The notes under the pieces: model-generated | The model's database searches: none | What the model saw: the letters and a program-made list of their open reading frames with translations, nothing else | Told to the model about the DNA's origin: nothing | IMG/VR virus record: IMGVR_UViG_2609459791_000004 | Span: 1 to 19,614 of that record | DNA from: a virus | Taxonomy: Duplodnaviria > Heunggongvirae > Uroviricota > Caudoviricetes | Direction: 5' to 3' (one strand) | Length of the DNA: 19,614 bases | Position numbers and translations under genes: made by a program | Shown here: piece by piece, positions 1-18,420 of the stretch | How the letters are laid out: each line of letters begins with the position of its first letter | Position numbering within the stretch: position 1 is the first letter of the stretch

Positions 1-1842
1 CTACGCCTCACCGCCGACACGCGTGGACCCATCATAATTTTTAATTTCAGTCGTTGATTTTAATACTTGGCCATCCCAGTAAACTAAAGGCCTGCTGAAC
101 GGCAGAGCGGCTATATATGCCATTGCTAATTGTTCATCTTGTTGATGGTTAAATAGAAAGTCATTGAAAAGATTACCATTGTTAGGAAAATCGTGGTTAA
201 TGTTAATCAATATCCGTCTTTCTGATGGGATACTTGAGATTGTGGAACCCGGTTTTGATGCAAGGGTTTGGAGATCTCCACCAAATGAAAAGGCTTTTAT
301 CGTTTTCATGAGCAATGAAAAATCAATGGCGCTTAAATCATCTCTTTCATAAAGCAGTGATGACATTTGTTGTTCATCCAACTGACAAGTTACCAGATAT
401 TCCATGTAATTCATAACGGCTTTTTTATGATATTTTGGGTTAAATAAGTTAGTATTGTGTAACCGCTCATTATAATTTTTAAGCGGTGGGGTTATTGATC
501 TTTCTATTTGTTCATGTTTTGAGTGTTTTGCCGCATCATAACGTAAACCTCGTACGCCATATTTTCGCATTTCACGAACGTATTGATTTTGCAACATAAT
601 AACCTGGTCACTTTTGGGTGTTGTTTTAGGCATTCCATTTAAACGCTTTTCTTTTAATGCATGGAGGTTTTCCCATTCATCCTTAGAGATGTTATCTTTA
701 CTTGCTTCGAAGTCTTTTGCAGTGAGATGTATATCTTCTGGATGGATTTGTTTACGTTCTTTTGTTACTGGATCTATAGTAAATGGAATCAAAACCTGAC
801 CTTGCCAATAGCCAGGGATACCACTTTCTATATCTTTACTGATCTTCGCTCGTATATCAGCAGAGGGATAATCCAGGTCATTTTTACCACTACCCCCGAT
901 TCCCATAAAGTTAAAGGTATAATCAGGAATGATATCGATACCAAATTTTTTAGCATCTTTAACCAATGCGATAAAATCCTGCAAATCTCCCATTGGATTG
1001 TGGATGGTACAAAGATCTTCGGGTTGATAAGCGTGAAACCAGTAACCTTTTTCTTCTTCGGGAGTTTCTGGTCCGTCGGCACGGAAAGTTGTCACTGGAG
1101 GGATTTGTATATACCCATAATGGCAACGTGCAAATTCAGACATATTTTCTCTGATCTGCTGGTAGGTGGCATTAAAAGCATGAATAATCGCTTCGCCAGG
1201 TTTTTTGGGGGTGATGATTTCACATTGTGATTTCTGAACAGCAGTAAGAGATTTACGCTCAAGTGTTTGCCGTAGATGTTCTGGATTGATTAATATTTTA
1301 AATGTTTCTTGCTGTCCGGAAGGTGACGTCACGTTAATATTATATACATCGGCTGCCAGCTCATAGTCAGGAATGTTAATAGCATATGCAACATATTTAT
1401 CTTTTGGGGAAGGTTTGTCAGATATAATGTGGGTGAAGTGTTCAGCAGGACCATACTGATAAACACCGCTGTTATCACCTCTTTCAATCATTGTATCTCG
1501 TTGATAAACCCATGTTTTTCCTTCTCCTATCCTGTCTGGCGCTGTAATGCTACGCTGTGCTGCTTTATTCAACTCTCGATAAGTTGTATCTGGAGAAAGG
1601 GAAATTTTATAATCGTTTTTTAACAGATCATTAATAACTTTTTCTGCGTGAAAAGTTGATATAATTTCTCTGTCTTTTAATCCTTGAGGGTAAACTCCAC
1701 AAGAATTAATAATATTTGTTATACAGTTTAGATATTCTAATGTATTTAATTTGGAATTTAGATCCCCGTCAGTAATGTTCCATGATAACAATGTGGGGTT
1801 GTCGATAGGTAAATTTCTGGGTCCTGGTTTTATAGAAAACAT
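1..1842 (-). CDS. alpha-amylase family (GH13-like) glycoside hydrolase; C-terminus runs off the window start (partial)
   Basis: 613-aa ORF with no stop before position 1. Translated motifs GIDIIPDYTFNF (region I-like), GVRGLRYDAAKH (GH13 region II, GFRxDAAKH with catalytic Asp) and ININHDFP (region IV NHD). AGGAA Shine-Dalgarno about 7 nt upstream of the ATG at 1842. AT-rich relative to neighbouring phage DNA. Position next to a tRNA-Ile(CAU) recalls E. coli ygaQ/ileY, but this is not verified. Confidence 0.6.
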   Translation of the reverse strand: MFSIKPGPRNLPIDNPTLLSWNITDGDLNSKLNTLEYLNCITNIINSCGVYPQGLKDREIISTFHAEKVINDLLKNDYKISLSPDTTYRELNKAAQRSITAPDRIGEGKTWVYQRDTMIERGDNSGVYQYGPAEHFTHIISDKPSPKDKYVAYAINIPDYELAADVYNINVTSPSGQQETFKILINPEHLRQTLERKSLTAVQKSQCEIITPKKPGEAIIHAFNATYQQIRENMSEFARCHYGYIQIPPVTTFRADGPETPEEEKGYWFHAYQPEDLCTIHNPMGDLQDFIALVKDAKKFGIDIIPDYTFNFMGIGGSGKNDLDYPSADIRAKISKDIESGIPGYWQGQVLIPFTIDPVTKERKQIHPEDIHLTAKDFEASKDNISKDEWENLHALKEKRLNGMPKTTPKSDQVIMLQNQYVREMRKYGVRGLRYDAAKHSKHEQIERSITPPLKNYNERLHNTNLFNPKYHKKAVMNYMEYLVTCQLDEQQMSSLLYERDDLSAIDFSLLMKTIKAFSFGGDLQTLASKPGSTISSIPSERRILININHDFPNNGNLFNDFLFNHQQDEQLAMAYIAALPFSRPLVYWDGQVLKSTTEIKNYDGSTRVGGEA

Positions 1843-2401
1843 AATAAAGTTCCTCTAATGGTAGAGTAATATGATGTATACGGAAACATAAAAATGTTTA
1901 ATTGTTGTGAAAGTAATTGCAAACAGATGTCCTACTTTTATCCAATATTTATATGGAAAAGGATAATGCTTAAATCTGTTTTATTAATTATCGATGTGGT
2001 CTGGAGAGGCAACTGTCAAAAATCGCTCATACGAAACTAATGATTAGCAGAATAAGATCTATGAAAGAATATATTGCTATACGAAGTTTATTTTTATGGA
2101 GTGAAAAGTAACAGATATCATAATGATGCGAAAACTCTTCAGCTAATGTAATAAAGTTATATTATTAGATACAAAATCATTACAAAGTATCATTGAATCG
2201 ATGATAACTATAGATAGTGCTAATTATAAACATTTGCTTGTTGACTGCGAGTATCGACTTTGCGAATGGAGGCGGTGTCGGGTTTTATGTCGCGTGTAAT
2301 CACGACCCAAGGTGAATGGGAACGCATAAAAATCTGTTATTTACATCATATGATCATCATGTTTATTGCGTGGTTTATAAGTATTGTTATTGCACACTCA
2401 A

Positions 2402-2477
2402 GGCCCTTTAGCTCAGTGGTTAGAGCAGGCGACTCATAATCGCTTGGTCGCTGGTTCAAGTCCAGCAAGGGCCACCA
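2402..2477 (+). tRNA. tRNA with CAU anticodon, Ile2 (lysidine) type rather than Met
   Basis: 76-nt cloverleaf read directly: acceptor GGCCCTT/AAGGGCC, D-arm GCTC-AGTGGTTA-GAGC, anticodon loop CTCATAA (anticodon CAT), T-arm GCTGG-TTCAAGT-CCAGC, discriminator A and encoded CCA. Matches my recollection of E. coli ileX/ileY rather than metT or initiator tRNA. The ORF-track frame starting at 2384 reads through it and is an artifact. Confidence 0.88.
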
Positions 2478-3556
2478 AATCATTATTTACGTATCAGGAA
2501 GAGTTAAGGGTACAAGGGGTACTGGCGGACGTTAAAGCCCAGCCCTCCCATATCAGCAAGCCGCTGATGCAACGTATTGAATACTTCAGCAGCCTGGGCA
2601 GGCCAAAGGCTTATTCCCGCTATTTGCGTGAGACGATTAAGCCATGTCTGGAACGACTGGAGCATGTACGCGACAGTCAGCTATCCACTTCTTTTCGCTT
2701 TATGGCAAGCCATGAAGGGCTGGACGGCCTGCTGATCCTGCCTGAAATGAGTCAGGATCAGGTGAAACGCCTGTCTACTCTTGTCGCTGCGCATATGAGC
2801 ATGTGTCTTGATGCCGCTTGTGGTGATTTGTACGCCACCGATGATGTTAAGCCAGAAGAAATCCGCAAGACATGGGAAAAGGTGGCAGCAGAAACCCTGC
2901 GACTGGATGTCATACCGCCTGCGTTTGAGCAACTCCGCCGGAAAAGAAACCGCCGTAAACCCGTGCCCTATGAACTCATTCCGGGTTCGCTGGCGCGTAT
3001 GTTGTGCGCCGACTGGTGGTACCGGAAATTATGGAAGATGCGTTGCGAATGGCGGGAAGAGCAGTTGCGTGCTGTTTGCCTGGTCAGCAAAAAAGCATCT
3101 CCCTATGTCAGCTATGAAGCCGTGATGCATAAACGTGAGCAGCGCCGTAAGTCGCTGGAGTTTTTCCGTTCTCATGAACTGGTGAACGAAGACGGCGACA
3201 CGCTGGACATGGAGGATGTGGTAAACGCCAGCAGCAGCAACCCTGCGCATCGCCGCAATGAGATGATGGCCTGTGTTAAAGGTCTGGAGCTTATCGCGGA
3301 AATGCGCGGTGACTGCGCCGTTTTCTACACCATCACCTGTCCGTCACGTTTCCATTCCACGCTAAATAACGGCAGGCCCAACCCGACCTGGACAAATACG
3401 ACGGTAAGACAAAGCAGTGATTATCTGGTCGGCATGTTTGCTGCATTTCGTAAGGCGATGCACAAAGCCGGATTGCGCTGGTATGGCGTGCGGGTGACCG
3501 AAGTGCTGGAATGGCGGTATAAAGCGATTCAGAGAAGCGGGGCCAACGATGAGTGA
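2478..3556 (+). pseudogene. phage rolling-circle replication protein (P2/186 gene A-like) fragment, abutting the tRNA and running into the tape-measure start
   Basis: Open frame continues from the tRNA to 3556 with no credible start or RBS; first in-frame ATG is at 2567. Contains [14 protein letters not shown], which resembles Rep motif 1 of the phage GPA family from memory, but no HUH or active-site Tyr region follows. Its stop overlaps the tape-measure ATG, so the 3' part may derive from another gene (for example E'). Identity is from recalled motifs only. Confidence 0.35.
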
Positions 3557-5901
3557 TAACAACCTGCGTCTGCAGGTCATTCTTAATGCGGTTGACAAGC
3601 TCACCCGCCCATTTCGATCTGCGCAGGCCAGTTCAAGAGAACTGGCTGCTGCTGTCAAAAAATCCCGCGATGCAATAAAGCAGCTTGATCAGGCCGGGAG
3701 CAGTCTGGACAGCTTCCGAAAGCTGCAGGCAGAAAATCAGAAATTAGGCGACAGGCTGAACTATGCCCGCCAGCGTGCAAATTTGCTCAGTCAGGAACTG
3801 GGAGCGATGGGGCCGCCTTCGCAACGTCAGGTTGTTGCTCTGGGCCGTCAACGGCTGGCTGTTCAGCGCCTGGAAGAACGCCAGAAAAAGCTGCAGCAGC
3901 AGACGGCGCTTGTGCGTGCTGAACTGTACCGGGCGGGAATTTCTGCGAAAGACGATGCGGGAGCAACTGCCCGTTTAGCCCGTGAAACATCACGTTATAA
4001 CCAGGAACTTTCGAAACAGGAGGCGCGGCTGAAGCGACTGGGGGAAGCTCAGCGCAGGATGAATGCAGCGCGTGCCAGTTATGCCCGTTCGCTGGAGGTG
4101 CGTGATCGTATTGCAGGTGCCGGAGCCACCACCACGGCTGCAGGGCTGGCAATGGGCGCACCAGTGATGGCGGCAGTAAAAAGCTATACCAGCATGGAAG
4201 ATGCCATGAAAGGTGTGGCAAAGCAGGTCAATGGTCTGCGTGACGATAATGGCAACCGCACTGCACGTTTTTATGAAATGCAGGATGCCATCAAGGCTGC
4301 CAGCGAACAGTTGCCGATGGAAAACGGTGCGGTGGATTTCGCTGCACTGGTTGAAGGTGGTGCGCGCATGAACGTCGCAAACCCTGACGACAGTTGGGAA
4401 GATCAGAAACGTGACCTGCTGGCCTTCGCCAGTACGGCAGCAAAGGCGGCAACAGCCTTTGAGCTGCCAGCGGATGAACTGTCAGAAAGTCTGGGGAAAA
4501 TCGCCCAGCTCTACAAAATCCCCACCCGCAATATTGAACAGCTCGGTGATGCGCTGAACTATCTGGATGATAACGCCATGTCGAAAGGGGCAGACATCAT
4601 TGATGTGATGCAACGTCTGGGCGGTGTGGCTGACCGTCTGGATTATCGTAAAGCGGCGGCGCTGGGTTCCACCTTCCTGACACTGGGCGCTGCGCCAGAG
4701 GTTGCAGCCAGTGCAGCAAACGCGATGGTGCGTGAATTGTCCATTGCCACCATGCAAAGCAAGAGTTTCTTTGAAGGGATGAATCTGCTGAAACTCAATC
4801 CTGAAGTGATTGAAAAGCAGATGACGAAGGATGCGATGGGAACCATCCAGCGCGTGCTGGAGAAGGTAAACGCGCTGCCGCAGGACAAGCGCCTGTCTGC
4901 CATGACTATGTTGTTTGGTAAAGAGTTTGGCGATGACGCGGCGAAACTGGCAAACAACCTGCCGGAACTGCAGCGTCAGTTAAAACTGACAGCGGGCAAT
5001 GATGCGCTCGGCTCCATGCAGAAAGAATCCGACATTAACAAGGATTCACTTTCTGCGCAGTGGTTGCTGGTCAAAACCGGAGCGCAGAACACCTTCAGCA
5101 GCCTGGGCGAAACGCTGCGCCAGTGCAGCGTTCGAACCGCTTAAGCCCGTGTTCCAGTGGATTGGCGACAAAGTGCAGGCGCTGTGGGGCTGGTTTACTG
5201 ATCTGCTGACGCCCGTTAAGTCGACCTCTGCCGAACTGCAGAGCGCAGCGGCAATGGGGCGGCGATTCGGGGAGGCACTGGCGGAAGGGCTGAATATGGT
5301 CATGCATCCGCTGGACTCCCTGAAATCCGGCGTTTCCTGGTTGCTGGAGAAGCTCGGCATTGTCAGTAAAGAGGCCGCAAAGGCAAAACTGCCGGAAAGC
5401 GTGACGCGTCAGCAACCTGCGACGGTGAATGCAGACGGTAAAGTGATGATGCCATCGGGTGGTTTTCCATCATGGGGATATGGCTTTGCGGGGATGTATG
5501 ACAGCGGCGGGGATATCCCGCGCGGGCAGTTTGGCATCGTCGGTGAAAACGGGCCGGAAATTGTTAACGGCCCGGCAAATGTGACCAGCCGGAGAAATAC
5601 AGCTGCACTGGCTGCCGTTGTTGCCGGAATGATGGGCGTTGCTGCCGCGCCAGCAGAGCTTCCACCGTTGCACCCCTTGGCACTTCCCGCGAAAGGTGGA
5701 GAAGCAATTGTGAGTCGCGCAGCCACTGTGCCGCTCGTTCAACGGATTGAGGCACCGACGCAGATCATCATTCAGACGCAGCCAGGACAAAGTGCGCAGG
5801 ATATTGCGCGGGAGGTGGCACGCCAGCTTGATGAACGTGAACGCAGGCTGAAGGCAAAAGCCAGGAGTAACTACAGCGATCAGGGGGGATACGACGCATG
5901 A
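3549..5901 (+). pseudogene. P2-like tail tape measure protein (gpT), interrupted by a +1 frameshift near 5100-5145
   Basis: Two overlapping ORFs, 3549-5144 (531 aa) and frame +1 ending at 5901, together give about 784 aa, close to P2 gpT size. N-terminus [22 protein letters not shown], coiled-coil Q/R/A/L-rich composition and a Gly/Ala-rich C-terminus are typical of tape measure proteins. Frame 1 stops at 5142-5144 while the downstream frame carries ...AAFEPLKPVFQWIGDKV. Confidence 0.75.
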
Positions 5902-6383
5902 TGATGGTGCTGGGATTGTACGTGTTTATGCTGCGCACCGTTCCGTATCAGGAACTGCAGTATCAACGCAGCTGGCGACATGCGGCAAACAGTCGGGTAA
6001 ACCGACGTCCGTCCACGCAGTTTCTGGGACCGGAAAACGACATGCTGACGCTTTCCGGTGTTCTTATGCCGGAGATAACAGGCGGCAGGCTGTCGTTGCT
6101 GGCACTGGAGCAGATGGCAGAACAGGGGAAAGCGTGGCCCCTGATTGAAGGCAGTGGCACGATTTACGGTATGTATGTGATTGAGGGACTGAATCAGACT
6201 AAAACGGAGTTTTTCCGCGATGGTATGCCGCGCCGGATTGAGTTTACCCTGTCGCTCAAACGGGTGGATGAATCCCTGTCCGATATGTTCGGTGATCTCA
6301 GTGCGCAGCTGAATAATTTGCAGGATACGGCAACGTCTGCCTTAAGCGATATCAGTAAAACGGTGGGAGGGCTGCTGTCGTGA
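5898..6383 (+). CDS. P2-like tail protein U
   Basis: 161-aa ORF whose ATG overlaps the tape-measure stop (ATGA). Size and position between T and D match the P2 T-U-D order. Confidence 0.75.
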   Translation: MMMVLGLYVFMLRTVPYQELQYQRSWRHAANSRVNRRPSTQFLGPENDMLTLSGVLMPEITGGRLSLLALEQMAEQGKAWPLIEGSGTIYGMYVIEGLNQTKTEFFRDGMPRRIEFTLSLKRVDESLSDMFGDLSAQLNNLQDTATSALSDISKTVGGLLS

Positions 6384-7480
6384 ATTTCAGCTCTGAACTG
6401 CTTAACAAAGGCAACAAAACTCCGGCATTCAGCATCAGTATTGAAGGCAGGGATATCACTACTGTGCTGGACAACCGCCTGATGGGGCTTACGCTGACGG
6501 ATAACCGGGGCTTTGAAGCGGACCAGCTTGATCTGGAGCTGGACGACGCCGATGGAAAAATCGTGCTGCCGCGCCGTGGTGCGGTCATTACGCTGGCGCT
6601 GGGCTGGAAGGGGCAGCCGCTTTTCCCGAAAGGGGCATTCACGGTGGACGAGATTGAACACACTGGCGCACCGGACCGCCTGACTATCCGGGCGCGAAGT
6701 GCTGATTTTCGTGAAACACTGAATACCCGCCGTGAAAAATCGTGGCATAAGACCACCGTCGGGGAAGTGGTGAAGGAAATAGCCGCGCGGCACAAGCTGA
6801 AGATGGCACTGGGTAAAGACCTGTCGGATAAGCCAGTGGAGCATATAGACCAGACTAATGAGAGTGACGGCAGTTTTCTGATGCGGCTGGCGCGACAGTA
6901 CGGTGCCATCGCGTCGGTGAAAAATGGCAATCTGTTATTCATCCGGCAGGGGCAGGGCAAAAGCGCCACTGGTAAACCTCTGCCAGTGATCACTATCACA
7001 CGCAAGGACGGCGACAGTCACCGATTTACCCTGGCAGATCGCGGAGCTTACACGGGCGTAATTGCCAGCTGGTTGCATACCCGCGAACCCGCGAAGAAAG
7101 AAAGCACCGCGGTGAAGCGTAAGCGCAGGACTAAGAAGCAGAAGAAAGAGCCGGAAACGAAGCAGGGCGATTATCTGGTGGGTACGGATGAAAACGTGCT
7201 GGTACTTAATCGCACCTATGCTAATCGGAGTAACGCCGAACGGGCAGCGAAAATGCAGTGGGAACGCCTGCAACGCGGCGTTGCGTCATTCTCGCTACAA
7301 CTGGCGGAAGGGCGGGCAGATCTCTACACGGAAATGCCAGTGAAAGTCAGTGGCTTTAAACAGCCGATAGATGATGCGGAATGGACCATTACGACTCTGA
7401 CGCATACCGTCAGCCCCGATAACGGTTTTACAACCAGTATTGAACTCGAAGTGAAGATTAATGATCTTGAAATGGAATAA
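6380..7480 (+). CDS. P2-like late tail protein D
   Basis: 366-aa ORF with GTG start overlapping the U stop. Position directly upstream of ogr matches the P2 order, and size is close to P2 gpD. Confidence 0.78.
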   Translation: MNFSSELLNKGNKTPAFSISIEGRDITTVLDNRLMGLTLTDNRGFEADQLDLELDDADGKIVLPRRGAVITLALGWKGQPLFPKGAFTVDEIEHTGAPDRLTIRARSADFRETLNTRREKSWHKTTVGEVVKEIAARHKLKMALGKDLSDKPVEHIDQTNESDGSFLMRLARQYGAIASVKNGNLLFIRQGQGKSATGKPLPVITITRKDGDSHRFTLADRGAYTGVIASWLHTREPAKKESTAVKRKRRTKKQKKEPETKQGDYLVGTDENVLVLNRTYANRSNAERAAKMQWERLQRGVASFSLQLAEGRADLYTEMPVKVSGFKQPIDDAEWTITTLTHTVSPDNGFTTSIELEVKINDLEME

Positions 7481-7548
7481 AGTGTTCTCAATATTGATAT
7501 TTTTTGTATCATTACAATGATTCTGATAGCAAAGGTAGGGATCTGGAT

Positions 7549-7767
7549 ATGATGAATTGTCCAAAGTGTGGTCATGCGGCACACACAAGGAGCAGTTTTC
7601 AAGTAACTGAAAGCACCAAAGAGCGTTACTGCCAGTGCCAAAATATTAACTGCGGGAGCACTTTTGTTACTCATGAAACAGTGGTCCGGTTTATTGTGAC
7701 ACCCGCACTGATTGCTACTGCTCCTCCACATCCATTGCCAGGTGGTCAGGGGCATATGAATTTTTGA
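7549..7767 (+). CDS. ogr: Ogr/Delta-family zinc-finger late transcription activator
   Basis: 72-aa product MMNCPKCGHAAHTRSSFQVTESTKERYCQCQNINCGSTF with the CxxC-N22-CxxxxC zinc finger of P2 Ogr. GGTAGGG Shine-Dalgarno about 8 nt upstream of the ATG at 7549. The ORF-track start at 7504 (TTG) is probably too long. Confidence 0.85.
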   Translation: MMNCPKCGHAAHTRSSFQVTESTKERYCQCQNINCGSTFVTHETVVRFIVTPALIATAPPHPLPGGQGHMNF

Positions 7768-7774
7768 GAAAGAG

Positions 7775-7797
7775 AACCTGCTACGGCAGGTTTTTAT
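7775..7797 (+). terminator. rho-independent terminator downstream of ogr
   Basis: Hairpin CCTGC-tacg-GCAGG followed by TTTTTATT, starting 8 nt after the ogr stop. Confidence 0.7.
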
Positions 7798-7907
7798 TCA
7801 TCTGGGATCTCACCCGTTTCAAGAAAATGTATAAAGCCAGGCTCATCTATGATGATTGTGCCTTTCATCCTGGCTGCCGATACTTTTGATGGGCCTGCAT
7901 TGTAACC

Positions 7908-8285
7908 TCAACAGAGCATCTGAAGGCTTTGGGTTATAGAGGTTCTTACCGTTAATCCTTGTTCATTCGCCTTATCAACCAATCTTTCTTTATCTGCTTT
8001 CTTAAATCCGGTGAAACACACATCGAATGTATTTTTTTTCGGACCAGACTGCTTAGTGAGATGTGAGTAGCTTTCGGGGAGGAATGACGCGCATTCCTGA
8101 ATGGCTTGTTCTGGTGAATCGTACTGTTTAAGAATGCGGTCTTTTCGGAAGGTTTTTATTCGATCGGTGTTCTTACAAATGCCCTGTATATGATTTTCGC
8201 TATAACTGATGCTCTGTATAGAGTGAACAGCGATACGACCATTTGCATTGATGTAAACAAAGTGAAGTTCTTCCATGTGAAACAT
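7908..8285 (-). CDS. hypothetical protein with WYL-like N-terminal region and a truncated BRCT-like C-terminal segment
   Basis: 125-aa ORF in AT-rich DNA. N-terminal FVYINANGRIAVHSIQSIS...RIKTFRKDRI resembles the WYL-domain RxFRxDRI signature. C-terminal FDVCFTGFKKADKERLVDKANEQGLTV looks like the start of a BRCT fold but stops early. No clear Shine-Dalgarno. Confidence 0.35.
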   Translation of the reverse strand: MFHMEELHFVYINANGRIAVHSIQSISYSENHIQGICKNTDRIKTFRKDRILKQYDSPEQAIQECASFLPESYSHLTKQSGPKKNTFDVCFTGFKKADKERLVDKANEQGLTVRTSITQSLQMLC

Positions 8286-8363
8286 CTTTGCATGATTTCA
8301 AGATGGTGACAGGCAAGATGGACGCAAAAGTCTGTCGCCATTTTGCCGCCACTACCAAAGAAA

Positions 8364-8398
8364 AAGGGGCTACGCTTTCACGTAACCCCTTGATTTAT
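8364..8398. terminator. bidirectional hairpin flanked by A/T runs
   Basis: GGGGCTACG-ctttca-CGTAACCCC (9-bp stem, one mismatch) with AAAAA on the 5' side and TTGATTTATTT on the 3' side. Confidence 0.4.
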
Positions 8399-8421
8399 TT
8401 GGTGGGCTGGCGGAGTCTGAA
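8399..8421 (-). other. candidate attR core of the P4-like element: degenerate copy of the 3' end of the tmRNA gene ssrA
   Basis: Plus strand TTGGTGGGCTGGCGGAGTCTGAA resembles the reverse complement of the ssrA 3' end as I recall it (TGGTGGAGCTGGCGGGAGTTGAA) with two 1-nt gaps and one mismatch. It lies just outside the crr-like iterons, at the end of the element opposite an IntA-like integrase. From memory only, no alignment run. Confidence 0.3.
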
Positions 8422-8583
8422 TAACTCACGTAAATATCTGTTAATAGGTGGCTTTAACCAATTCAACTTTCTTCGGTATACCTAAGCGTATACCAATGGC
8501 GATTTGTTGCAGCGCTTCCTGTGATTAAGAGAACCTGTTTTTGGATAAATCACATCTAGAAAAAAACTTTTTTTTAGAAAAAC

Positions 8584-8675
8584 TGTTCACACTGTTCACT
8601 GTGCATTTTTATTTATAAAATTCATGACATTACGGGGTGAATGGTTGGTGAACAGTGAACACTTTACTGTTCATT
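8584..8675. repeat. iteron cluster resembling P4 crr (cis replication region), with adjacent A/T tract
   Basis: TGTTCAC at 8584-8590 and 8594-8600; GGTGAACA at 8647-8654; GTGAACA at 8655-8661; degenerate copies at 8636-8642 and 8668-8675. Both orientations present. Preceded by AAAAAAACTTTTTTTT at 8561-8580. TGTTCACC is, from memory, the P4 type I iteron bound by alpha. Confidence 0.6.
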
Positions 8676-8722
8676 TTACTGGCTCACAGAGGATTACCAT
8701 ACGAATCCTTAAGGACTTGCGG

Positions 8723-9523
8723 TCATTTTCGCCATTCTCTTGTTCCACTAATGTTAGACATCACATCGTCGAAGTTGAATTTTGGATCTGTATCTGGATT
8801 AAATTGGCCATTTTTACTTTCATAAATGAAATTTTGACAATCACAATTGCTGTCACTTTCGCCGCAGTCCATGCATTCAGCATTACAGTAATCTATCATC
8901 CTATCAATGGCATCCCAGGGCTCATAATCGTAGTCGAAATGTCCATAACCACTACTGCCATAAATTCTTCCATTTATGAAGTCGTCAATGTCACTAATAT
9001 TTCTTAACTGGCAGTTGAAAATATTTGATATAGGTCTAAGGACTACCCTCGCATAATCAAATTTGTATAAGGGCATTTCAAAGAAAACCTTACCATTATC
9101 AGCTTTAAGACTGTGAAAAGATAAATCTCCATATTTTTCTATAAGTTCCTTATATCTTTTTTTATCCAGCTCAACATGCTTGAATGAGTTGTTAATCGCA
9201 TCCAAAAGAGAAAACTTATTGCTAATGTGCTTACTCCCATCCACTTCATATCGTTTATCGAAGCTTTTAATAAAATCAGTTCTGGTTATTTCAGTTTTCT
9301 TTTTTGCAATAAATATCATGTAATCAACAACGTGAGCCAAGATTGCGTTAAATGAAAATACATGATGAAGCTTCAGTGTATTGTTGTTTAGTATTGTGAA
9401 AAACTCTTCAGATGCTGGGGTTAAAACATTATCCAAATAAGAAAGGAGATAGCTTGCATCTTTTTCATCGGAGCTGCCTGTGTATAGTTCTATTGCGCTT
9501 CCTTGATGGTTGAGATTTATCAT
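8723..9523 (-). CDS. hypothetical Cys-rich protein, cargo ORF between the crr-like iterons and alpha
   Basis: 266-aa ORF in an AT-rich block inside the GC-rich satellite backbone. C-terminal cluster CNAECMDCGESDSNCDCQ suggests possible metal binding. No family recognised. Confidence 0.55.
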   Translation of the reverse strand: MINLNHQGSAIELYTGSSDEKDASYLLSYLDNVLTPASEEFFTILNNNTLKLHHVFSFNAILAHVVDYMIFIAKKKTEITRTDFIKSFDKRYEVDGSKHISNKFSLLDAINNSFKHVELDKKRYKELIEKYGDLSFHSLKADNGKVFFEMPLYKFDYARVVLRPISNIFNCQLRNISDIDDFINGRIYGSSGYGHFDYDYEPWDAIDRMIDYCNAECMDCGESDSNCDCQNFIYESKNGQFNPDTDPKFNFDDVMSNISGTREWRK

Positions 9524-9689
9524 TAATAACCGCCAGTAAGTTCTATTAATCTGGGAAAATTAACCGTGATAAATGAAGTATAGCGACTTCCTTCATTGCT
9601 ATGCAATCATACGATTGTTTCATTACATTGAATCAATTCTCACTCAGAACTGTATCTTAAATTGTGCATAATGTCTGGACTGAGAGTGC

Positions 9690-9715
9690 AAAAAAAAGAC
9701 CGGCGATTGCCGGTC
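9690..9715 (-). terminator. rho-independent terminator downstream of alpha
   Basis: On the minus strand, hairpin GACCGGC-aatc-GCCGGTC followed by T8, about 10 nt after the alpha stop. Confidence 0.7.
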
Positions 9716-9723
9716 AGGTCAGG

Positions 9724-12057
9724 TTATTTCGCTAGGGGGTCATCACATTTCGGCAGCCAGTCGGCGTTGCTTTCCTCTCTTAACGCGAGATTGGTTTGTA
9801 TGCCCTGATTTTTTCGGCGCTTCTCATAACTTAGCCCGTACTCTTTCAGCATGGCTGGCAGCCCCTTACCGAACATGGTGAGGCTGAGAGTATTCCTGTA
9901 GCCGTGGGCTTCCATATACGCCAGATAGGCATGATACAAATACAGGCGCGGCTGACGCGGAATGATGTTGGCATTGCCAATATACATGCCCTCAGGCTCC
10001 GGCAGTGCCTCCAGATAGCCACAAAAATCAAAGGCCGGATCGGCGTCGCGTTTGATGCTGAGTGCCTCGTCGGAGTTCTGCTGTGACTGGAGCAGGGCAC
10101 GCGCTGTCATCGGGTTGCTGAACTTCTGCATAAGCTGGCGCACAATCACGGCCAGCTCGCGCGCAATTTTATCCCTGAGCTGCGGGTCGCGTTCCTCCGG
10201 GGCAATCTGCTCAGGGAAGTGGATGATTACCCGGCGACGGGAAACACCGCCGCTGCGGTCGGTAAAGCGCATCGGGTTATTGTTCACGGCCAGAATCACC
10301 GCAGGAATATGGGTGGAGTACGCATCCTTGTATTTCGGGTCAACGGAGACCGCATCCCCGCCGGTGATGGCCTTGAGTCCTGCCCCGTCACCGCTCCATT
10401 TCTCCTGGTCAGGCAGACGGATTAGCGAGAAGCCAATCAGCGCAGCACGTTCACGCGGCGACTCCAGCGTTTCGATAGTGGCCGATGTGGCGTTATCTTC
10501 CCCGGCAAGCATGGTCGCAATTTCGGCCAGAATACTTTTTCCGCTGCCACCGGGTCCGGTCACCTCAAGAAAGAGCTGCCAGTCGTAACGGTTCGCCAGC
10601 ACCATAAACAGCGCGGCCAGAATCACGTCGCGTTTTTCCGGTTTGCCACCGGCGGCGCGGTCGAGCCAGCGCCAGAACTCCGGGGCGTGGGTTTCCAGCG
10701 TTTCCCCCTCTACCGGTGGGGTAAAATCGACATCACAGAGTGTGCGCAGCCAGTGCGATTTATGGTGTGGGCTGAAAGTACCCGTGGCGGTATCGAGTAC
10801 TCCGTTACGAAAGCCAATCAGACGCCGTGCCGGGGCATCCTGCTGCGGAATAATCAGTTTCAGGGTCTCCACCACTGAGGCAATTTTCCCCGACGAGAAC
10901 GGTGCGCGCAGACGCTGGAACAACCCGGCCACGTCGCGGGCAAAATCCGACGGCGGAATGATTTTCCATATCCCGGCCTCATAGCGGGACAGGAGCTGGC
11001 CGTTTGCATCCACGGCCAGCGCTTCGCCGTAATGCTCATGCACCCGCATCGCCTTTTCACTGGTGCTCATGGCGGTAAATTCTGCCTCGCTCATGGTAGC
11101 GAAAGGGCTGTCAGCCGGTGGCCGGATGGCGTCATAAATCGCTTTTCGTGTCGCCTCTTCGCCTTTCTGAACAAACGCATCATTCCAGTCACCGAATACC
11201 GGCGGCAGGGCAACAACGCCTTCACAGGCTTCTGCGGCCGCGGCGGCTTTACTCTGACCATCGCCGTTCAGGTCACGGTCGGCGGCGAGGACAATCTGAC
11301 AGGCCGGGTGTTTCTGGCGGACAAGGCTCGCCAGAGAAAGGAGGTTCACGGACGACAGTGCCACCATGACGGTTTCACCGGTCAGGTGATGCACGGTGAG
11401 CGCGGTCGCATAGCCCTCCGCTATCCACAGGCGTTTTCCGGCCTGTTTCTTCCCTTCGATGACATGACATGCTCCTTTAACCTGACCGCCCTTCAGGGTG
11501 CGTTTGAGACCGTCAGAATTGATGAGCTGAAGGTTTACCAGCGCGCCGGTATCGTCATACAGCGGGACAACCACATCCCCGGCGCGGAACGTCACGCCGC
11601 CGGTTTTATGCATGACCGTAAGTACCGGACATTCCCGGTCGGGGAAGCCCTTGCGGGTCAGGTAGGCGTTGCCGCTGGCAGGTTGGGTTTTCTCCATGAG
11701 CCTGACGGTCAGTGCGGCCGCCGCTTTGCGGTCAGCCTCCGTTTCAGCCTCTGCGGCCGCAATCACTTCGGGGGCAACCGGTGGCAGGTTGCCGGTCACG
11801 GCGTCCACCCTCCCGGCAGCCTCTGATGCGGTCACGCCAAACACTTTCTCGACCAGCTTAAGACCGTCACCCGCACCGCACTGGTTACAGAACCACGTCC
11901 CGCGTCCCTCTTTATCGTCAAAGCGGAAACGGTCAGAGCCGCCGCACATCGGGCAGGCCTGATGCCGGTTTTTCATGACCTTCACACCAAGCGCCGGAAG
12001 AATGCGCGGCCAGTGGCCGCACGCCTGTTTTACCGTCTCTGTTACGTTCATTTTCAT
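9724..12057 (-). CDS. P4 alpha-type bifunctional primase-helicase
   Basis: 777 aa, the same length as P4 alpha. N-terminal zinc-binding CPMCGGSD...FCNQC, primase motif EGYATA, Walker A GPGGSGKS. GAGGGAG Shine-Dalgarno upstream of the ATG at 12057. Confidence 0.9.
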   Translation of the reverse strand: MKMNVTETVKQACGHWPRILPALGVKVMKNRHQACPMCGGSDRFRFDDKEGRGTWFCNQCGAGDGLKLVEKVFGVTASEAAGRVDAVTGNLPPVAPEVIAAAEAETEADRKAAAALTVRLMEKTQPASGNAYLTRKGFPDRECPVLTVMHKTGGVTFRAGDVVVPLYDDTGALVNLQLINSDGLKRTLKGGQVKGACHVIEGKKQAGKRLWIAEGYATALTVHHLTGETVMVALSSVNLLSLASLVRQKHPACQIVLAADRDLNGDGQSKAAAAAEACEGVVALPPVFGDWNDAFVQKGEEATRKAIYDAIRPPADSPFATMSEAEFTAMSTSEKAMRVHEHYGEALAVDANGQLLSRYEAGIWKIIPPSDFARDVAGLFQRLRAPFSSGKIASVVETLKLIIPQQDAPARRLIGFRNGVLDTATGTFSPHHKSHWLRTLCDVDFTPPVEGETLETHAPEFWRWLDRAAGGKPEKRDVILAALFMVLANRYDWQLFLEVTGPGGSGKSILAEIATMLAGEDNATSATIETLESPRERAALIGFSLIRLPDQEKWSGDGAGLKAITGGDAVSVDPKYKDAYSTHIPAVILAVNNNPMRFTDRSGGVSRRRVIIHFPEQIAPEERDPQLRDKIARELAVIVRQLMQKFSNPMTARALLQSQQNSDEALSIKRDADPAFDFCGYLEALPEPEGMYIGNANIIPRQPRLYLYHAYLAYMEAHGYRNTLSLTMFGKGLPAMLKEYGLSYEKRRKNQGIQTNLALREESNADWLPKCDDPLAK

Positions 12058-12071
12058 CGTTATTTTCTCCC

Positions 12072-12392
12072 TCAGTGCATGACAGGCGATGTGATATGAC
12101 GGGCACAGAGCTCATCCATCACGGCCAGCCCGAGGAAGGACAGCGACGGGGCAGCTTTCAGTGGTCCGGCTTCCATTAAATCTTCCAGCAGTGCACAGGC
12201 AATCTGGCGGCCTTTTTCCTCGCCGTGCTGGCGCAGGTAGAAGCCCTCCAGCTCGGCGGCAATGGCGCTTTCCAGCGCGTCAAGGGTGAGGTGTGGGTAG
12301 CGGCACTGGCGTTCGCACAGGGTCAGCCATGCACAGGCCACGGCGCGCCGATATAGCGCGGCGCGTAATACGGGCGGTAATGGCTTTTTCAT
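12072..12392 (-). CDS. P4-like left-operon protein (orf upstream of alpha)
   Basis: 106-aa ORF immediately upstream of alpha; its start overlaps the stop of the preceding small ORF by 4 nt. GC-rich backbone composition. Confidence 0.5.
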
Positions 12393-12616
12393 ACGTTGCC
12401 CTCCCCGGTCAGCCAGCGCTGATTGCAGCGCTCTACCACGCCGTCGAGCTGGGCGGTCATAAGGTAAATCACGGAGGTGAGTTGCGACTGCTGTGCAGGG
12501 TCACGACGAACGGTCGCGCAGTCCTGCACCTGCATCAGCTCGTTGACGAGCTGGCCGACGTTGCGCATGTGCTCCAGACATTCGAGGTCACGGGCGCTAA
12601 TCGTGGTGTGTCTCAT
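12389..12616 (-). CDS. small P4-like left-operon protein (possibly Eps or Icd-like)
   Basis: 75-aa ORF with 4-nt overlaps to both neighbouring ORFs (12613-12616 and 12389-12392). Identity is guessed from position only. Confidence 0.4.
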
Positions 12617-12807
12617 GCACGCACCTCCGCAACCGGCAGGCGGCCAGCGAACGAGAGGACGTAATCGCGAACAAGGGAACGACGTGCAGCGTGTTCATCA
12701 CCGGCAACGGTGCGGAGCATACAGATACGGGGTTTACGGTCTGCACGACGAACGGCGGCAAACACAAAAACAAACTGCGGGTGTGACGGGGTGAGGATAG
12801 TAGCCAT
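12613..12807 (-). CDS. small P4-like left-operon protein (64 aa)
   Basis: Internal ATG of the long ORF-track frame, with GGAGG 8 nt upstream; stop overlaps the next ORF. The rest of the 185-aa frame is low-complexity and covers the leader region. Confidence 0.35.
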
Positions 12808-12829
12808 GATGGCAGCCTCCATTGAGTAG

Positions 12830-13015
12830 CGGTTACTGCTACCACCGGAAACGCCAATTTCACTGGTGGCAGCCCGAACGGGGTTGGCGTAACCGGCCTC
12901 AATGGATACCGGCCAGCCCGAAGGCTGCCCCGCCCGGACTACCATTATCTTGCTGGAACCATGGTGTATAAAAAGACACCACAGCCCGGAAAATGGGTGT
13001 GCCTGAGCTACGACG
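12830..13015 (-). ncRNA. candidate P4-type immunity leader (CI RNA and seq-like repeats)
   Basis: Noncoding stretch between the leader terminator and the first small ORF. Repeated AGCCCGAA (12871-12878 and 12915-12922) and GGCGTT(T)CC elements, plus hairpin CAGCC-cgaa-GGCTG. Position matches the P4 cI region. Exact RNA ends not determinable here. Confidence 0.25.
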
Positions 13016-13038
13016 AAAAAAAAGACGCACGGCGCGTC
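13016..13038 (-). terminator. leader terminator downstream of the PLE-like promoter
   Basis: On the minus strand, hairpin GACGC-gccgt-GCGTC followed by T8, about 60-80 nt downstream of the predicted start. Confidence 0.4.
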
Positions 13039-13101
13039 TGGTGTCGCCATTGAGTTTCGCGGAACGCCAATTCCGGCTGTCGATTTTGCGACAGCGGGAA
13101 A

Positions 13102-13131
13102 ACTATACCTGGAAACGGCGAAAAGAAGCAA
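13102..13131 (-). promoter_or_regulatory. sigma70-like promoter, candidate P4 PLE
   Basis: On the minus strand, TTGCTT-N18-TATAGT. A 7-bp stem-loop (GCTGTCG/CGACAGC) lies at the predicted transcript 5' end. Confidence 0.4.
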
Positions 13132-13166
13132 GCCAGAAAAAGGGTCTGTTTGCTGAACGGTCATCA

Positions 13167-13433
13167 TCATGCGTCATAGCCCCGGTTGCGTTCGGCAATA
13201 CGATCCGCCATCCATGCTGTGATTTCAGACTGCGCCCACGCCACGTTTTTTCCGCCCAGGCTGATTTGTTTCGGGAAAGCCTCGCGGCTGATGAGGTCGT
13301 AAATGGTTGACCGGGACAGGCCGCACAGATGCATCACTTCAGGCAGGCGGATAAAGCGCTCCTGAACGGCATCAGAAACCGGCATCAGTGGTGCGGCAGG
13401 GGCAGAAGACGGGGAAGAAAAAGCGGTGTGCAT
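13167..13433 (-). CDS. AlpA/Vis-family DNA-binding regulator or excisionase
   Basis: 88 aa with [32 protein letters not shown], typical of AlpA/Vis HTH proteins. GAGGT Shine-Dalgarno upstream. Confidence 0.8.
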
Positions 13434-13699
13434 CGGGCTACCTCATAATGTCCATACAGTGCCGGTCATGTCCGTCCGGCTTCGGGTAGCTCCTTATTAT
13501 GTCTATATTTTTCCTCAGGTCATGTGAGATTTTCGGGGAAACAAACATTGACTTTTCGCTCTGGCAAACAAAGACAAACGCTGGCAAAGATATGCAAATC
13601 ACTGCATTACAATGCAGCAATTTCTATTGCTTTTAGTTATACATTTTTCATTTTTAATCGAAATAAAATCTAAGTGGTTTGGACAGAGCAAAACAGGAG

Positions 13700-13804
13700 G
13701 GTGAACAGTGGTGAACAGAGGGTGAACAGTCAGACCCTCAACTGTTCACCCTTTATCTTACTGTATTACTTATATTTTTATTTAAGGTGAACAGTGGTGA
13801 ATAG
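13700..13804. repeat. iteron cluster resembling the P4 replication origin
   Basis: GGTGAACA at 13700-13707, 13710-13717, 13721-13728 and 13786-13793; inverted TGTTCACC at 13743-13750; degenerate GGTGAATA at 13797-13804. Includes an 11-bp inverted repeat GGGTGAACAGT-N10-ACTGTTCACCC. Flanked by A/T-rich DNA. Confidence 0.6.
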
Positions 13805-13880
13805 TTATAAGTAAAAAAACAAACGGTGAGTAAGGTTTTGCTGAGACCTTTCTCTGGCCAGCCGGGTTTTAAGTGTTGTT

Positions 13881-13898
13881 TGTGCCAGAACTGCCACA
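13881..13898 (+). promoter_or_regulatory. TGT-N12-ACA element, candidate Delta/Ogr activator site of the sid promoter
   Basis: TGTgccagaactgccACA centred about 81 nt upstream of the sid ATG. P2/P4 late promoters are known to carry a TGT-N12-ACA dyad around -55. Confidence 0.45.
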
Positions 13899-13970
13899 AC
13901 TGCAATGAATCGAGATGTTGTGTGATGAAGGGCAGAATCATTTCAGGTTGAATAAACGGAGAGCCTGAAC

Positions 13971-14714
13971 ATGAAACCCGAAACAGTCATTACCGCCCTG
14001 CAAGACGTTGCCGCCAAGCAGTACGCAGAGAACAGCCAGCACGTCACCGACAAGCTGAGCGTATTTACTGCGGCAAGAGACACCCACGCGGCCAGCATGC
14101 AGGTACTGAAAGAGATTGATACGTCCATTCAACGCTGTAAGCAGGAGCGGCAGACCGCTCTCGATGAGAGCGCAGAAGCGGAGCAGGACTGGCGCAGCCG
14201 CTTTCGCACCCTGCGCGGCAGTCTTACCCCTGAAATGAAAGCTGAGCACAGCAGGCGTATCGCCAGCCGCGAGCTGGCCGACGAGTTCACCAGCCTGATT
14301 GCCGAGCTGGAGGCCGACCGGACGCGCGCCATGCTGACTGCCTGCTCCACCGGCAATAAATACCTTTCAGCGCATGAAGATGCCTTTACCGCTTATGCCG
14401 GTGCGGAATGGGCTCAGGCTGTCAATGCGGTTCCTGTCACCCTCATCCGCGCTTTCCTGCTGCGCATTCGTGCCCTCGAAATGAAGGGAGAAAGCGCCCC
14501 GCAGTCCGTGGCCACTGGCGAGCTGCGCGATGCGCTGAGTCGTCAGGGCAGCCTGTATCACTTCGATATGACGCAGGAGCCGGTGTTGTCCGTGACGGGC
14601 ATGCACCGGCCGCAGATTACAGGCGTGGATACGGAGCTGTTACGCAGCCCTGCGAAGAGAATGATGCTCGCCAGAAAGCTGGCTGAAAATGGCGAGACAG
14701 AAGCGGAGGGGTAA
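13971..14714 (+). CDS. sid: P4 Sid-like capsid size determination protein
   Basis: 247 aa, alpha-helical charged composition, first gene of the sid-delta-psu block. GGAGAG Shine-Dalgarno. Confidence 0.75.
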   Translation: MKPETVITALQDVAAKQYAENSQHVTDKLSVFTAARDTHAASMQVLKEIDTSIQRCKQERQTALDESAEAEQDWRSRFRTLRGSLTPEMKAEHSRRIASRELADEFTSLIAELEADRTRAMLTACSTGNKYLSAHEDAFTAYAGAEWAQAVNAVPVTLIRAFLLRIRALEMKGESAPQSVATGELRDALSRQGSLYHFDMTQEPVLSVTGMHRPQITGVDTELLRSPAKRMMLARKLAENGETEAEG

Positions 14715-14716
14715 GC

Positions 14717-14935
14717 ATGTTTCACTGCCCGTTCTGCAAAACCAGCGCGCATTCCCGCACCAGTCGCTATCTGTCCGATAACGTCAAACAGCGCTATCAC
14801 CAGTGCATGAACATCGAGTGCTCGGCCACGTTCCGCACGCTTGAATCCATCGACGGGGTTATTCGTTCACCGGTAACAGAGCCGGTCATCCCTGTACCCG
14901 CACCGGCGGCCACCGTTAACCGTGCCGGTGCGTAA
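14717..14935 (+). CDS. Delta (Ogr-family zinc-finger late activator), single-domain form
   Basis: 72 aa MFHCPFCKTSAHSRTSRYLSDNVKQRYHQCMNIECSATF with the same Cys spacing as Ogr. Starts 3 nt after the sid stop. Confidence 0.8.
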   Translation: MFHCPFCKTSAHSRTSRYLSDNVKQRYHQCMNIECSATFRTLESIDGVIRSPVTEPVIPVPAPAATVNRAGA

Positions 14936-14963
14936 GCACGGCCAGTCATCAGGAGAAACATAC

Positions 14964-15527
14964 GTGACCACACTGACGCTACAGAAAGCCTTTGAGACCT
15001 GTCAGGCAAACAAATCCGCCTGGCTGCAACGCAGGGAAGAACTGACGCAGGCCGAACAGGCATACCGCGAACAGCTTGCCGGCAGCGGGCACAGCGGCCG
15101 GAGCCTGCAAACGCTACGTGAAATTATTGACGTGAAAAAATGGGAAATTAATCAGGCTGCCGGTCGCTATATCCGCTCGCATGAGGAGGTGCAGCGCATC
15201 AGCATCCGCGACCGATTAAATGATTTTATGCAGGCGCACGGCGCGGAGCTGGCCGCCGCCCTCGCCCCGGAGCTGATGAATTATCCCGGGCAACACCCCG
15301 CCATTCAGCGCTGCGCCATGCAGCACTCACTCGACTGTCTGCGTGAGGCGCTACAGGTCTGGCTGGCCGTTGGTGAAAAAATTAATTATTCGGCGCAGGA
15401 CAATGACATTTTAACGGCCATCGGATTCAGGCCTGACGCGGCTTCGCGCGATGATAGCCGTGAAAAATTCACACCTGCACAGAACCTGAATTACACCCGC
15501 CGTCGTGCAGAACTGGCTGCGCAGTAG
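14964..15527 (+). CDS. psu: P4 Psu-like polarity suppression protein
   Basis: GTG at 14964 preceded by AGGAG with 9-nt spacing, giving about 187 aa, close to P4 Psu. Last gene before the cos-like region. Confidence 0.75.
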   Translation: MTTLTLQKAFETCQANKSAWLQRREELTQAEQAYREQLAGSGHSGRSLQTLREIIDVKKWEINQAAGRYIRSHEEVQRISIRDRLNDFMQAHGAELAAALAPELMNYPGQHPAIQRCAMQHSLDCLREALQVWLAVGEKINYSAQDNDILTAIGFRPDAASRDDSREKFTPAQNLNYTRRRAELAAQ

Positions 15528-15573
15528 TCCTTTCAAAAATCCCCAAAAATCCCGCCATTTTTACGTAAAAAAG

Positions 15574-15600
15574 CCATGCATGCATAAGGTGCATGGTTTT
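15574..15600 (+). terminator. rho-independent terminator after psu
   Basis: Hairpin CCATGCA-tgcataagg-TGCATGG followed by TTTT. Confidence 0.6.
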
Positions 15601-15693
15601 GCATGCGCTTTACCGACACTGTATTCCCCGCCAGCGCCAGCACTGGCGCGCCCTGAGGCCGGTCATGCGCCTGCATTAAAAGCGCCCCCTTAA

Positions 15694-15718
15694 GCGGGCA
15701 GGCGGGGCGGGGAGAGCA
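15694..15718. other. candidate cos site
   Basis: GCGGGCAGGCGGGGCGGGGAGAGCA resembles the P2/P4 19-nt cohesive end as I recall it (GGCGAGGCGGGGAAAGCAC). Sits between psu and the cargo hotspot, where P4 cos lies. Confidence 0.3.
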
Positions 15719-15896
15719 TTGCGCGCCATAGGCTCTTATCATTTATTTGATATATCTTTTTAGAAACTGCGAAACAGACTAAAAAATCATGATCATCCCT
15801 TTGATTTGTAGGTAGAATTCGATCAATAGTATGAGTTGATTGGATGCTGATACAAAAGCTATTTAACTATACATTTGATGTCATGGAGGGGTTATA

Positions 15897-16370: not shown

Positions 16371-16377
16371 GGTTCAT

Positions 16378-18384: not shown

Positions 18385-18389
18385 GAACT

Positions 18390-18417
18390 ATGCCCGTCAG
18401 CATGACGGGCATGTTTT
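18390..18417. terminator. hairpin terminator between the convergent hotspot operon and integrase
   Basis: ATGCCCGTC-agcat-GACGGGCAT (9-bp perfect stem) followed by GTTTT, between stops at 18384 and 18421. Confidence 0.6.
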
Positions 18418-18420
18418 AGC

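Follow-up and report, generated by a model that had tools for sequence, protein, structure and literature searches.

What kind of gene is the α-amylase-like reading frame at the left end of the viral record IMGVR_UViG_2609459791_000004 (Caudoviricetes), and is the copy found there still a working gene? The stretch analysed, hereafter the window, comprises positions 1–19,614 of that record (19,614 nt). Positions 1–2401 of the window are the Escherichia coli ygaQ locus (b4462), flanked by the core gene glaH (csiD) on one side and by the transfer RNA (tRNA) gene ileY on the other. This identity rests on the 100% match of window 1–2480 to many E. coli chromosomes at ygaQ–ileY, on the shared gene order (csiR, gabP, gabT, gabD, lhgO, glaH, an ‘alpha-amylase family’ pseudogene and tRNA-Ile on those chromosomes) and on the placement of ygaQ (b4462, a pseudogene of 2253 bp) and ileY at the same position in K-12 MG1655; the comparison with E. 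coli ygaQ that a first-pass annotation of this DNA had proposed thus ended in an exact match. Relative to K-12, 20 of the 1842 bases of the open reading frame (ORF) differ, and 558 of the 559 bases of the spacer between ORF and tRNA are identical. The tRNA gene itself (2402–2477, plus strand; ARAGORN, Rfam tRNA at 73.8 bits and RefSeq tRNA-Ile) agrees at 76 of 76 bases with K-12 ileY (b2652), which is annotated as tRNA-Ile(CAU). ARAGORN called it Met-CAT, a label that derives from the CAT anticodon alone; the CAU anticodon of tRNA-Ile2 is read as Ile once position 34 is modified to lysidine, and, by base identity, the tRNA adjoining ygaQ is ileY, of the tRNA-Ile2 class, and not a tRNA-Met. As a whole, the locus is very probably best explained as an AT-rich, acquired and H-NS-bound gene whose intact form encodes an enzyme of glycoside hydrolase family 13 (GH13), and of which the window carries a dead allele.

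The window copy starts with an ATG at 1840–1842 and runs on the minus strand for 613 codons (4–1842; codon 613 at 4–6), covering an N-terminal tail, an N-terminal domain and GH13 domains A and B. It ends at an amber codon, TAG (1–3, minus strand; cta on the plus strand), which, as judged from the sequence and from intact alleles, replaces the TGG of Trp614. In RefSeq, DNA identical to that of the window is entered as a pseudogene of 750 codons flagged ‘internal stop’, and translation of the full frame places that stop at codon 614. Residue 614 is Trp in intact E. coli alleles (P0001), in the E. albertii protein P0005 and in the metagenome protein P0008. The 137 codons of the 750-codon frame that follow the stop lie outside the window and include the Alpha-amylase_C domain (PF02806; residues 649–738 of an intact allele, 27.6 bits, gathering score 21.2), which is wholly downstream of codon 614; the C-terminal β-sandwich, domain C, is absent from the 613-amino-acid ORF of the window. 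Given the RefSeq flag, the invariant Trp614, the lost domain C and the further upstream lesions in alleles that share this stop (W614*), the window copy of ygaQ is, on its sequence, a pseudogene made by a TGG→TAG change at codon 614, a conserved Trp. The change would end translation ahead of the last barrel helix and the entire C-domain, and the truncated product would probably have lost activity. The first-pass annotation had held that completeness could not be judged because the 3′ end was outside; this is true of the ancestral 137 codons, whereas the present ORF stops within the window, at 1–3.

The W614* allele is common in E. coli. We used 41-nt probes centred on the variant base with a 28-nt exact word in Megablast, so that the alleles cannot cross-match; among 5426 complete E. 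coli genomes, 2397 (~44%) carried the TAG allele and 1543 the TGG allele, and the remainder lacked the segment or had diverged in it. K-12 shares with the window the glaH/ygaQ/ileY synteny, the 2253-bp frame, the amber stop at W614 and the identical tRNA, but has two extra amber stops (W111* and W346*, in addition to W614*), whereas the window allele has W614* only and hence a 613-codon ORF. In O157:H7, codon 614 is still TGG but the gene contains a different stop plus a frameshift; IS3 truncates ygaQ in one strain, and in strain ECCNB12-2 the gene is annotated as intact (750 amino acids, WP_000491427.1). We further compiled 84 full-length alleles (73 from metagenome contigs), a sample that is biased towards the best matches to an intact query and in which K-12-like alleles may represent laboratory contamination. 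Thirty-one were intact and 42 carried W614*, 13 of the latter without a further lesion and 29 with added disruptions upstream. Stops at 111, 346 and 614 were seen in every combination, a sign of recombination or recurrence. Synonymous diversity (πS) of the W614* haplotype is 0.004 near codon 614, and this very low diversity fits a single, fairly recent origin of the stop. The 31 intact alleles are diverse (πS 0.095) with a ratio of nonsynonymous to synonymous diversity (πN/πS) of 0.13; intact E. coli alleles are under purifying selection. As a separate observation across loci L001–L104, the Trp-to-stop lesions at W21, W111, W346 and W614 are all TAG and never TGA, the stop at Q413 is TAG as well, and none of these sites is in a Dcm CCWGG context.

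The catalytic domain, a GH13 (β/α)8 barrel whose domain B is long, is encoded by codons 216–613 (4–1197, minus strand); in the window it is cut ahead of helix α8 and domain C. The domain starts at about residue 216 (AIIHAFN). Pfam PF00128 matched residues 264–519 (22.7 bits, gathering score 22, E = 6.7e-5); a family profile (A1, from few relatives) matched Bacillus subtilis AmyE (1UA7/1BAG) in PDB with E = 1.8e-52; phmmer searches of PDB matched B. subtilis-type amylases from residue ~215 on; and Foldseek ranked 3dc0, 1ua7 and 1bag first (TM-score 0.63, normalised to the target) with a poor AlphaFold2 (AF2) model, the full-length model being relied on solely for confirming the amylase fold. 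NCBIfam gave weak matches over ~50 residues to MalS-type models (up to 22.6 bits, with cut-offs of 749–1458). By profile, motif and fold, the ygaQ protein is a divergent GH13 (α-amylase family) member, with a signal far above chance. The placement of GH13 motifs in the C-terminal half of the protein, as first described, is thus borne out by Pfam, the PDB profile match and Foldseek; the absence of GH13 profile matches had been named as what would overturn it, and such matches are present.

The catalytic residues could be placed within this domain. Region II (core GLRYDAAKH) contains Arg434, Tyr435 and Asp436, the predicted nucleophile (535–543, minus strand), and aligns with GFRFDAAKH of AmyE (D176); R434, D436, K439 and H440 are invariant in alignment A1, and their codons were verified. 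In region III (NYMEYLV), Glu481 (400–402, minus strand) is the predicted general acid/base on the basis of a profile alignment onto AmyE E208 (YGEIL); it is invariant in alignment A2, and plain MAFFT alignment of A1 is ambiguous at this point. Region IV (NINHDFP) holds His550–Asp551 (190–195, minus strand), the latter the predicted transition-state stabiliser aligned to AmyE SHD (D269); both residues are invariant in A1 and A2, and the codons were verified. Asp436, Glu481 and Asp551 are predicted to form the residue set of a retaining α-glucan hydrolase or transglycosidase, and an α-glucan would be the substrate of intact YgaQ. Region I (DIIPDYTFNF; 907–924, minus strand; codons verified) retains Asp307 and Asn311 and has Phe312 in place of the usual His, a residue that is highly conserved among GH13 enzymes, though not universal, and so departs from the Asp...Asn-His pattern of the family. 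The ‘NF’ of region I is common to E. coli, E. albertii and P0008, and the distant relatives P0009–P0013 have ‘NH’.

The best profile and fold matches, AmyE (1BAG, 1UA7), 3DC0 from Bacillus sp. KR-8104 and Ruminococcus bromii Amy16 (9QF9), show how YgaQ compares with AmyE-type amylases. They have in common the GH13 barrel, aligned regions II, III and IV with the Asp/Glu/Asp set kept and, in intact ygaQ alleles, domain C. YgaQ differs in its low identity (~15–17%), the lack of a signal peptide, an N-terminal region of 215 residues without relatives, the region I Phe, extra sequence between regions I and II and between regions II and III and, in the window allele, the missing domain C. E. coli MalS and AmyA are GH13 members of the same organism, but ygaQ is not a paralogue-level relative of either. 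A literature search returned no enzymology of full-length YgaQ.

Codons 1–215 (1198–1842, minus strand) encode the tail and an orphan N-terminal domain. The first-pass annotation had described some 250 N-terminal residues of unknown function; the extension is shorter, at ~215 residues, since GH13 begins at about residue 216, and the rest of that description holds, as residues 1–215 match nothing known. Residues 1–30 are predicted to be disordered, are rich in Ser/Thr/Pro/Asn/Gln (43–57%) and lack a hydrophobic signal-peptide core; they evolve fast (nonsynonymous divergence, dN, 0.87), and the first 12 contain no acidic residue. No Sec or Tat signal peptide was found in intact YgaQ, which would by default be cytoplasmic. 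Residues ~31–215 form an α/β region of ~185 residues, of which 31–92 and 158–213 were modelled confidently by AF2 and 93–157 were not. This domain had no Pfam or NCBIfam match, and a phmmer search of residues 1–219 against 1.84 billion representatives recovered only E. coli ORF fragments and three CHAT/TPR-like repeat proteins, which we rejected as relatives because the resemblance is a chance, repeat-inflated one. The segment concerned, DRIGEGKTWVYQRDTMIERGDNSG (residues 93–127; window 1462–1566, minus strand), resembles the repeat unit of P0026, P0037 and P0038, with up to 13 repeats matched through DRIGEGKTW...GDN.G, and sits in the low-confidence part of the AF2 model. The N-domain is Escherichia-restricted and under constraint in intact alleles; no relative of it could be detected by sequence or by fold.

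When 185,579 species were scanned, each represented by one genome, full-length members of the family occurred only in E. coli/Shigella and E. albertii, plus one contig of a metagenome-assembled genome labelled ‘Bacillota bacterium’ (L008, JAEWTL010000056.1). This 4.4-kb contig carries an E. coli ygaQ (96% protein identity) with W111* and W614*, which suggests E. coli contamination. The next relatives, from Oligoflexia and a few others, have 22–26% identity and match only from residue ~194–217 on; a word-index search added cyanobacterial amylases and P0008, a human-gut metagenome protein with 34% identity whose source species is not among the scanned GTDB representative genomes. P0008 (824 amino acids; on L003, a 17.9-kb human gut metagenome contig) is the closest relative outside Escherichia. 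Its neighbours include a truncated InvH-like gene, a leucine-rich-repeat (LRR) fragment, a marT/fidL-like pair, an EAL protein and a giant invasin/intimin-like protein; equating the marT/fidL-like pair with yqeI/yqeJ of E. coli type III secretion system 2 (ETT2) was rejected, as the resemblance is at family level only (regulator 32% identity, partner E = 0.003). A comparison of the Escherichia N-domain with the N-terminal region of P0008 by hhalign was not significant (E = 0.074), and MAFFT alignments were mutually inconsistent there.

The E. albertii protein P0005 (738 amino acids) is intact and resembles E. coli YgaQ in architecture, including the N-domain, and in its place between ileY and glaH, but is only ~58–60% identical in amino acids. 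Synonymous divergence (dS) between the two species is ~2.1 for ygaQ, compared with ~0.29 for the adjacent glaH, and dN/dS is 0.135–0.15 in the N-domain, barrel and C-domain alike. The divergent block, ~3 kb of 36–79% identity (L013 6500–11000 compared with L007), takes in the spacer, the gene and ~190 bp past the stop. Its edges are sharp, one of them at the ileY promoter: the tRNA and ~70 bp upstream are conserved, and the glaH side is 89–99% identical. Given the excess of dS over that of glaH, the two species carry, by their sequences, anciently diverged versions of a ygaQ cassette that, by the same comparison, was a functional gene during most of its history.

The base composition of the locus marks it off from its flanks. 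GC content is 37.4% in the ORF and 31.3% in the divergent promoter spacer between ygaQ and ileY (1843–2401, 559 bp, defined by composition and K-12 identity), compared with 54.3% in the P2-like DNA to the right of the tRNA and 55.7% in the glaH–gab genes on the left; GC at third codon positions is 29.7% (0.30) for the full 750-codon ygaQ, compared with 0.64 for glaH (left-flank and full-gene values are from the identical record L001). A 189-amino-acid ORF antisense to ygaQ (661–1230, plus strand) is most likely a side effect of the AT-richness. The low GC relative to the flanks, the sharp-edged divergent block and published H-NS binding show ygaQ to be old, horizontally acquired, AT-rich foreign DNA. 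The initial impression that the gene and its AT-rich upstream region look foreign is therefore supported by composition and the H-NS reports, with the correction that the spacer has 559 bp and not 540 bp.

Published data point to regulation from this spacer and from within the gene. In a genomic SELEX study (systematic evolution of ligands by exponential enrichment), the ileY/ygaQ spacer was bound by the RpoD holoenzyme, marked for HNS and predicted to hold promoters in both directions (PMC3946193). We located the predicted ygaQ-direction promoter motif of that study, TTATCA-17-TGTAAT, at 2179–2207 (minus strand), and a consensus scan gave the predicted ileY-direction promoter TAGATA-16-TATCAT at 2166–2193 (plus strand), with the same hexamers as reported there. 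An H-NS-repressed intragenic promoter fragment, ‘ygaQ 1.1’ (PMC7229825), corresponds to 316–465 (minus strand), as both published primers match exactly (439–465, minus; 316–342, plus). Evidence that is indirect as regards binding has also been published: a predicted cluster of Fur sites at −383 and, from transcriptome data, induction linked to peroxide/OxyR (PMC2189734, PMC4207228). An intact ygaQ would be silenced by H-NS and repeatedly lost. Within the spacer, a non-coding block of ~75 bp (2010–2082) with the palindrome CTAATCATTAG at 2037–2047 shows ~90% identity to E. albertii, although no alignment is possible for the remainder of the spacer. The block is present in a single copy per genome, which rules out a repeated element, and has no Rfam match; an RNA element was rejected on fold z-scores of 0.10 and −0.13. 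The block is probably a protein-binding site for some regulator. Rfam at a permissive threshold over window 1–2700 found the tRNA only, plus a sub-threshold antisense match on it. A scan found no sites resembling terminators, and those resembling promoters numbered fewer than in shuffled sequences; a repeat search gave short chance matches only. A paper on riboswitch candidates (PMC4448311) was set aside as irrelevant, ygaQ lying >7 kb downstream of its candidates.

Several points weigh against reading ygaQ as a GH13 enzyme gene that is dead in the window. The PF00128 match is marginal (22.7 bits here and 21.0 bits in an intact allele, gathering score 22), the AF2 models are poor (predicted local distance difference test scores of 56 for the full-length protein and 59), and, owing to Phe312, neither substrate nor activity can be assumed from family membership. 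The exact 613-amino-acid sequence is, moreover, recorded on 830 contigs, which would also be expected if the truncated protein still worked, either as an enzyme without its C-domain or through its N-domain, with the amber codon defining a shorter gene. In keeping with this, the 613-codon ORF is uninterrupted, its catalytic residues are all kept, and πN/πS among W614* alleles is 0.08–0.25 upstream of the stop compared with 0.8 downstream. However, alleles that inherited their variation from functional ones, or gained it from them by recombination, would be expected to show such a low upstream ratio, and the downstream ratio rests on 13 segregating sites; we rejected continued selection on the truncated ORF as unproven. 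The extra stops and frameshifts before codon 614 in 29 of the 42 sampled W614* alleles imply that the truncated frame is not maintained, and the product lacks domain C. GH13 enzymes generally require a complete barrel and domain C for stability. We consider a working 613-residue protein unlikely.

The sole biochemical paper on ‘YgaQ’ also runs counter to the enzyme reading, as the activity it reports is that of a single-stranded DNA (ssDNA) nuclease and not of a glycosidase: a purified 110-amino-acid protein from W3110 cut 5′-ended ssDNA and, on overexpression, conferred resistance to mitomycin C, and a multi-site mutant lost nuclease activity and resistance together (PMC4725251). The native role could then be in DNA repair, the N-terminal region acting as a 5′-flap/ssDNA nuclease, and the fragment does correspond to residues 1–110 of the window ORF, ending at the K-12 stop W111*. 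That 110-residue protein, however, exists only through a nonsense mutation of the K-12 lineage (the window has Trp111), and of the predicted domain core it takes in no more than a part, in addition to the disordered tail; the N-domain has no sequence or fold similarity to any nuclease, deletion of ygaQ gave no mitomycin C phenotype (PMC4725251), and the homology to α-amylases claimed for residues 1–110 in the same paper was not reproduced, GH13 similarity beginning at ~216. A native repair role is, in our estimate, very unlikely. Only slightly less remote is the view that intact YgaQ is an exported enzyme of virulence type, for example a type III substrate of ETT2 or of the locus of enterocyte effacement (LEE) that acts on host glycogen, its decay paralleling that of ETT2. 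This would accord with a gene that is AT-rich, H-NS-silenced and tRNA-adjacent, with a product that has no Sec/Tat signal and a disordered, fast-evolving, Ser/Thr/Pro/Asn/Gln-rich start, with the intact and conserved ygaQ of E. albertii, which bears a secretion system of type III (T3SS), and with the island around P0008, the only other close relative, with its truncated InvH-like, LRR-fragment, marT/fidL-like and invasin-like genes. Yet no chaperone or T3SS gene adjoins ygaQ in E. coli or E. albertii, an N terminus of this composition is no specific mark of a secretion signal, the InvH-like gene is a fragment on a contig without a secretion apparatus gene, and the N-terminal homology of P0008 to Escherichia YgaQ is not significant, as given above. 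The effector reading was considered and not adopted, for want of T3SS or chaperone linkage. A fuller version, in which intact YgaQ is a working Escherichia-restricted enzyme whose orphan N-domain steers the GH13 module to an unusual place or substrate, specifically by type III secretion onto host glycogen, is likewise improbable, about as much so as a working truncated protein; were it true, a type III-secreted YgaQ would now be undergoing decay in E. coli by way of several null alleles at high frequency, and the divergent cassette and conserved 75-bp block would be a small regulated accessory module, overlooked owing to the dead K-12 copy.

The DNA to the right of ileY does not provide a native background against which ygaQ stands out. 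The first-pass annotation had taken these GC-rich surroundings as the contrast, but the tRNA-side DNA is itself foreign: the GC-rich neighbour is mobile DNA too, and the core flank proper, glaH, falls beyond the window. The first 46 bp past the tRNA are common with K-12. From ~2524 to 7767 the window contains a P2/186-like prophage remnant (gpA, tape measure, gpU, gpD and ogr), in which the C terminus of the gpA replication endonuclease (2567–3556) matches gpE, suggesting an internal deletion, and the tape measure gene is frameshifted into two ORFs (3549–5144 and 4999–5901); ileY is on record as an integration site of phage 186 (PMC3448106). A P4-like satellite element occupies 7771–19614, with a 777-amino-acid primase (9724–12057, minus), Ash (12613–13170, minus), Psu (14922–15527, plus) and an integrase that reaches the window end (18421–19614, minus). 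Between psu and int lie a 157-amino-acid ORF (15897–16370) and a 668-amino-acid ORF (16378–18384) with AAA_15/AAA_21 and OLD-like TOPRIM domains, which resemble cargo for anti-phage defence. The gene directly after ogr in L001 is ssrA; a transfer-messenger RNA was looked for in the window and not found.

Both ygaQ and the adjoining tRNA were known before this analysis, as were the silencing of the gene by H-NS and its standing as a pseudogene; the window copy, a common annotated pseudogene allele of a catalogued gene, matters little in itself. The present analysis contributes the precise mutation on the edge of the window together with how often it occurs, positions for the catalytic residues and the replacement of His by Phe in region I, the Escherichia restriction with a constrained orphan N-domain, the hyper-divergent E. 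albertii cassette and the conserved upstream block. For annotation, the tRNA should be named ileY and the stop at 1–3 treated as a nonsense mutation and not as the natural end of the gene; low GC flags ygaQ as old foreign DNA, and its GC-rich neighbour is a prophage remnant. Because the K-12 copy is triply broken, work in K-12 cannot answer what ygaQ does. Intact alleles under purifying selection, with their orphan N-domain, imply a real function that is experimentally accessible.

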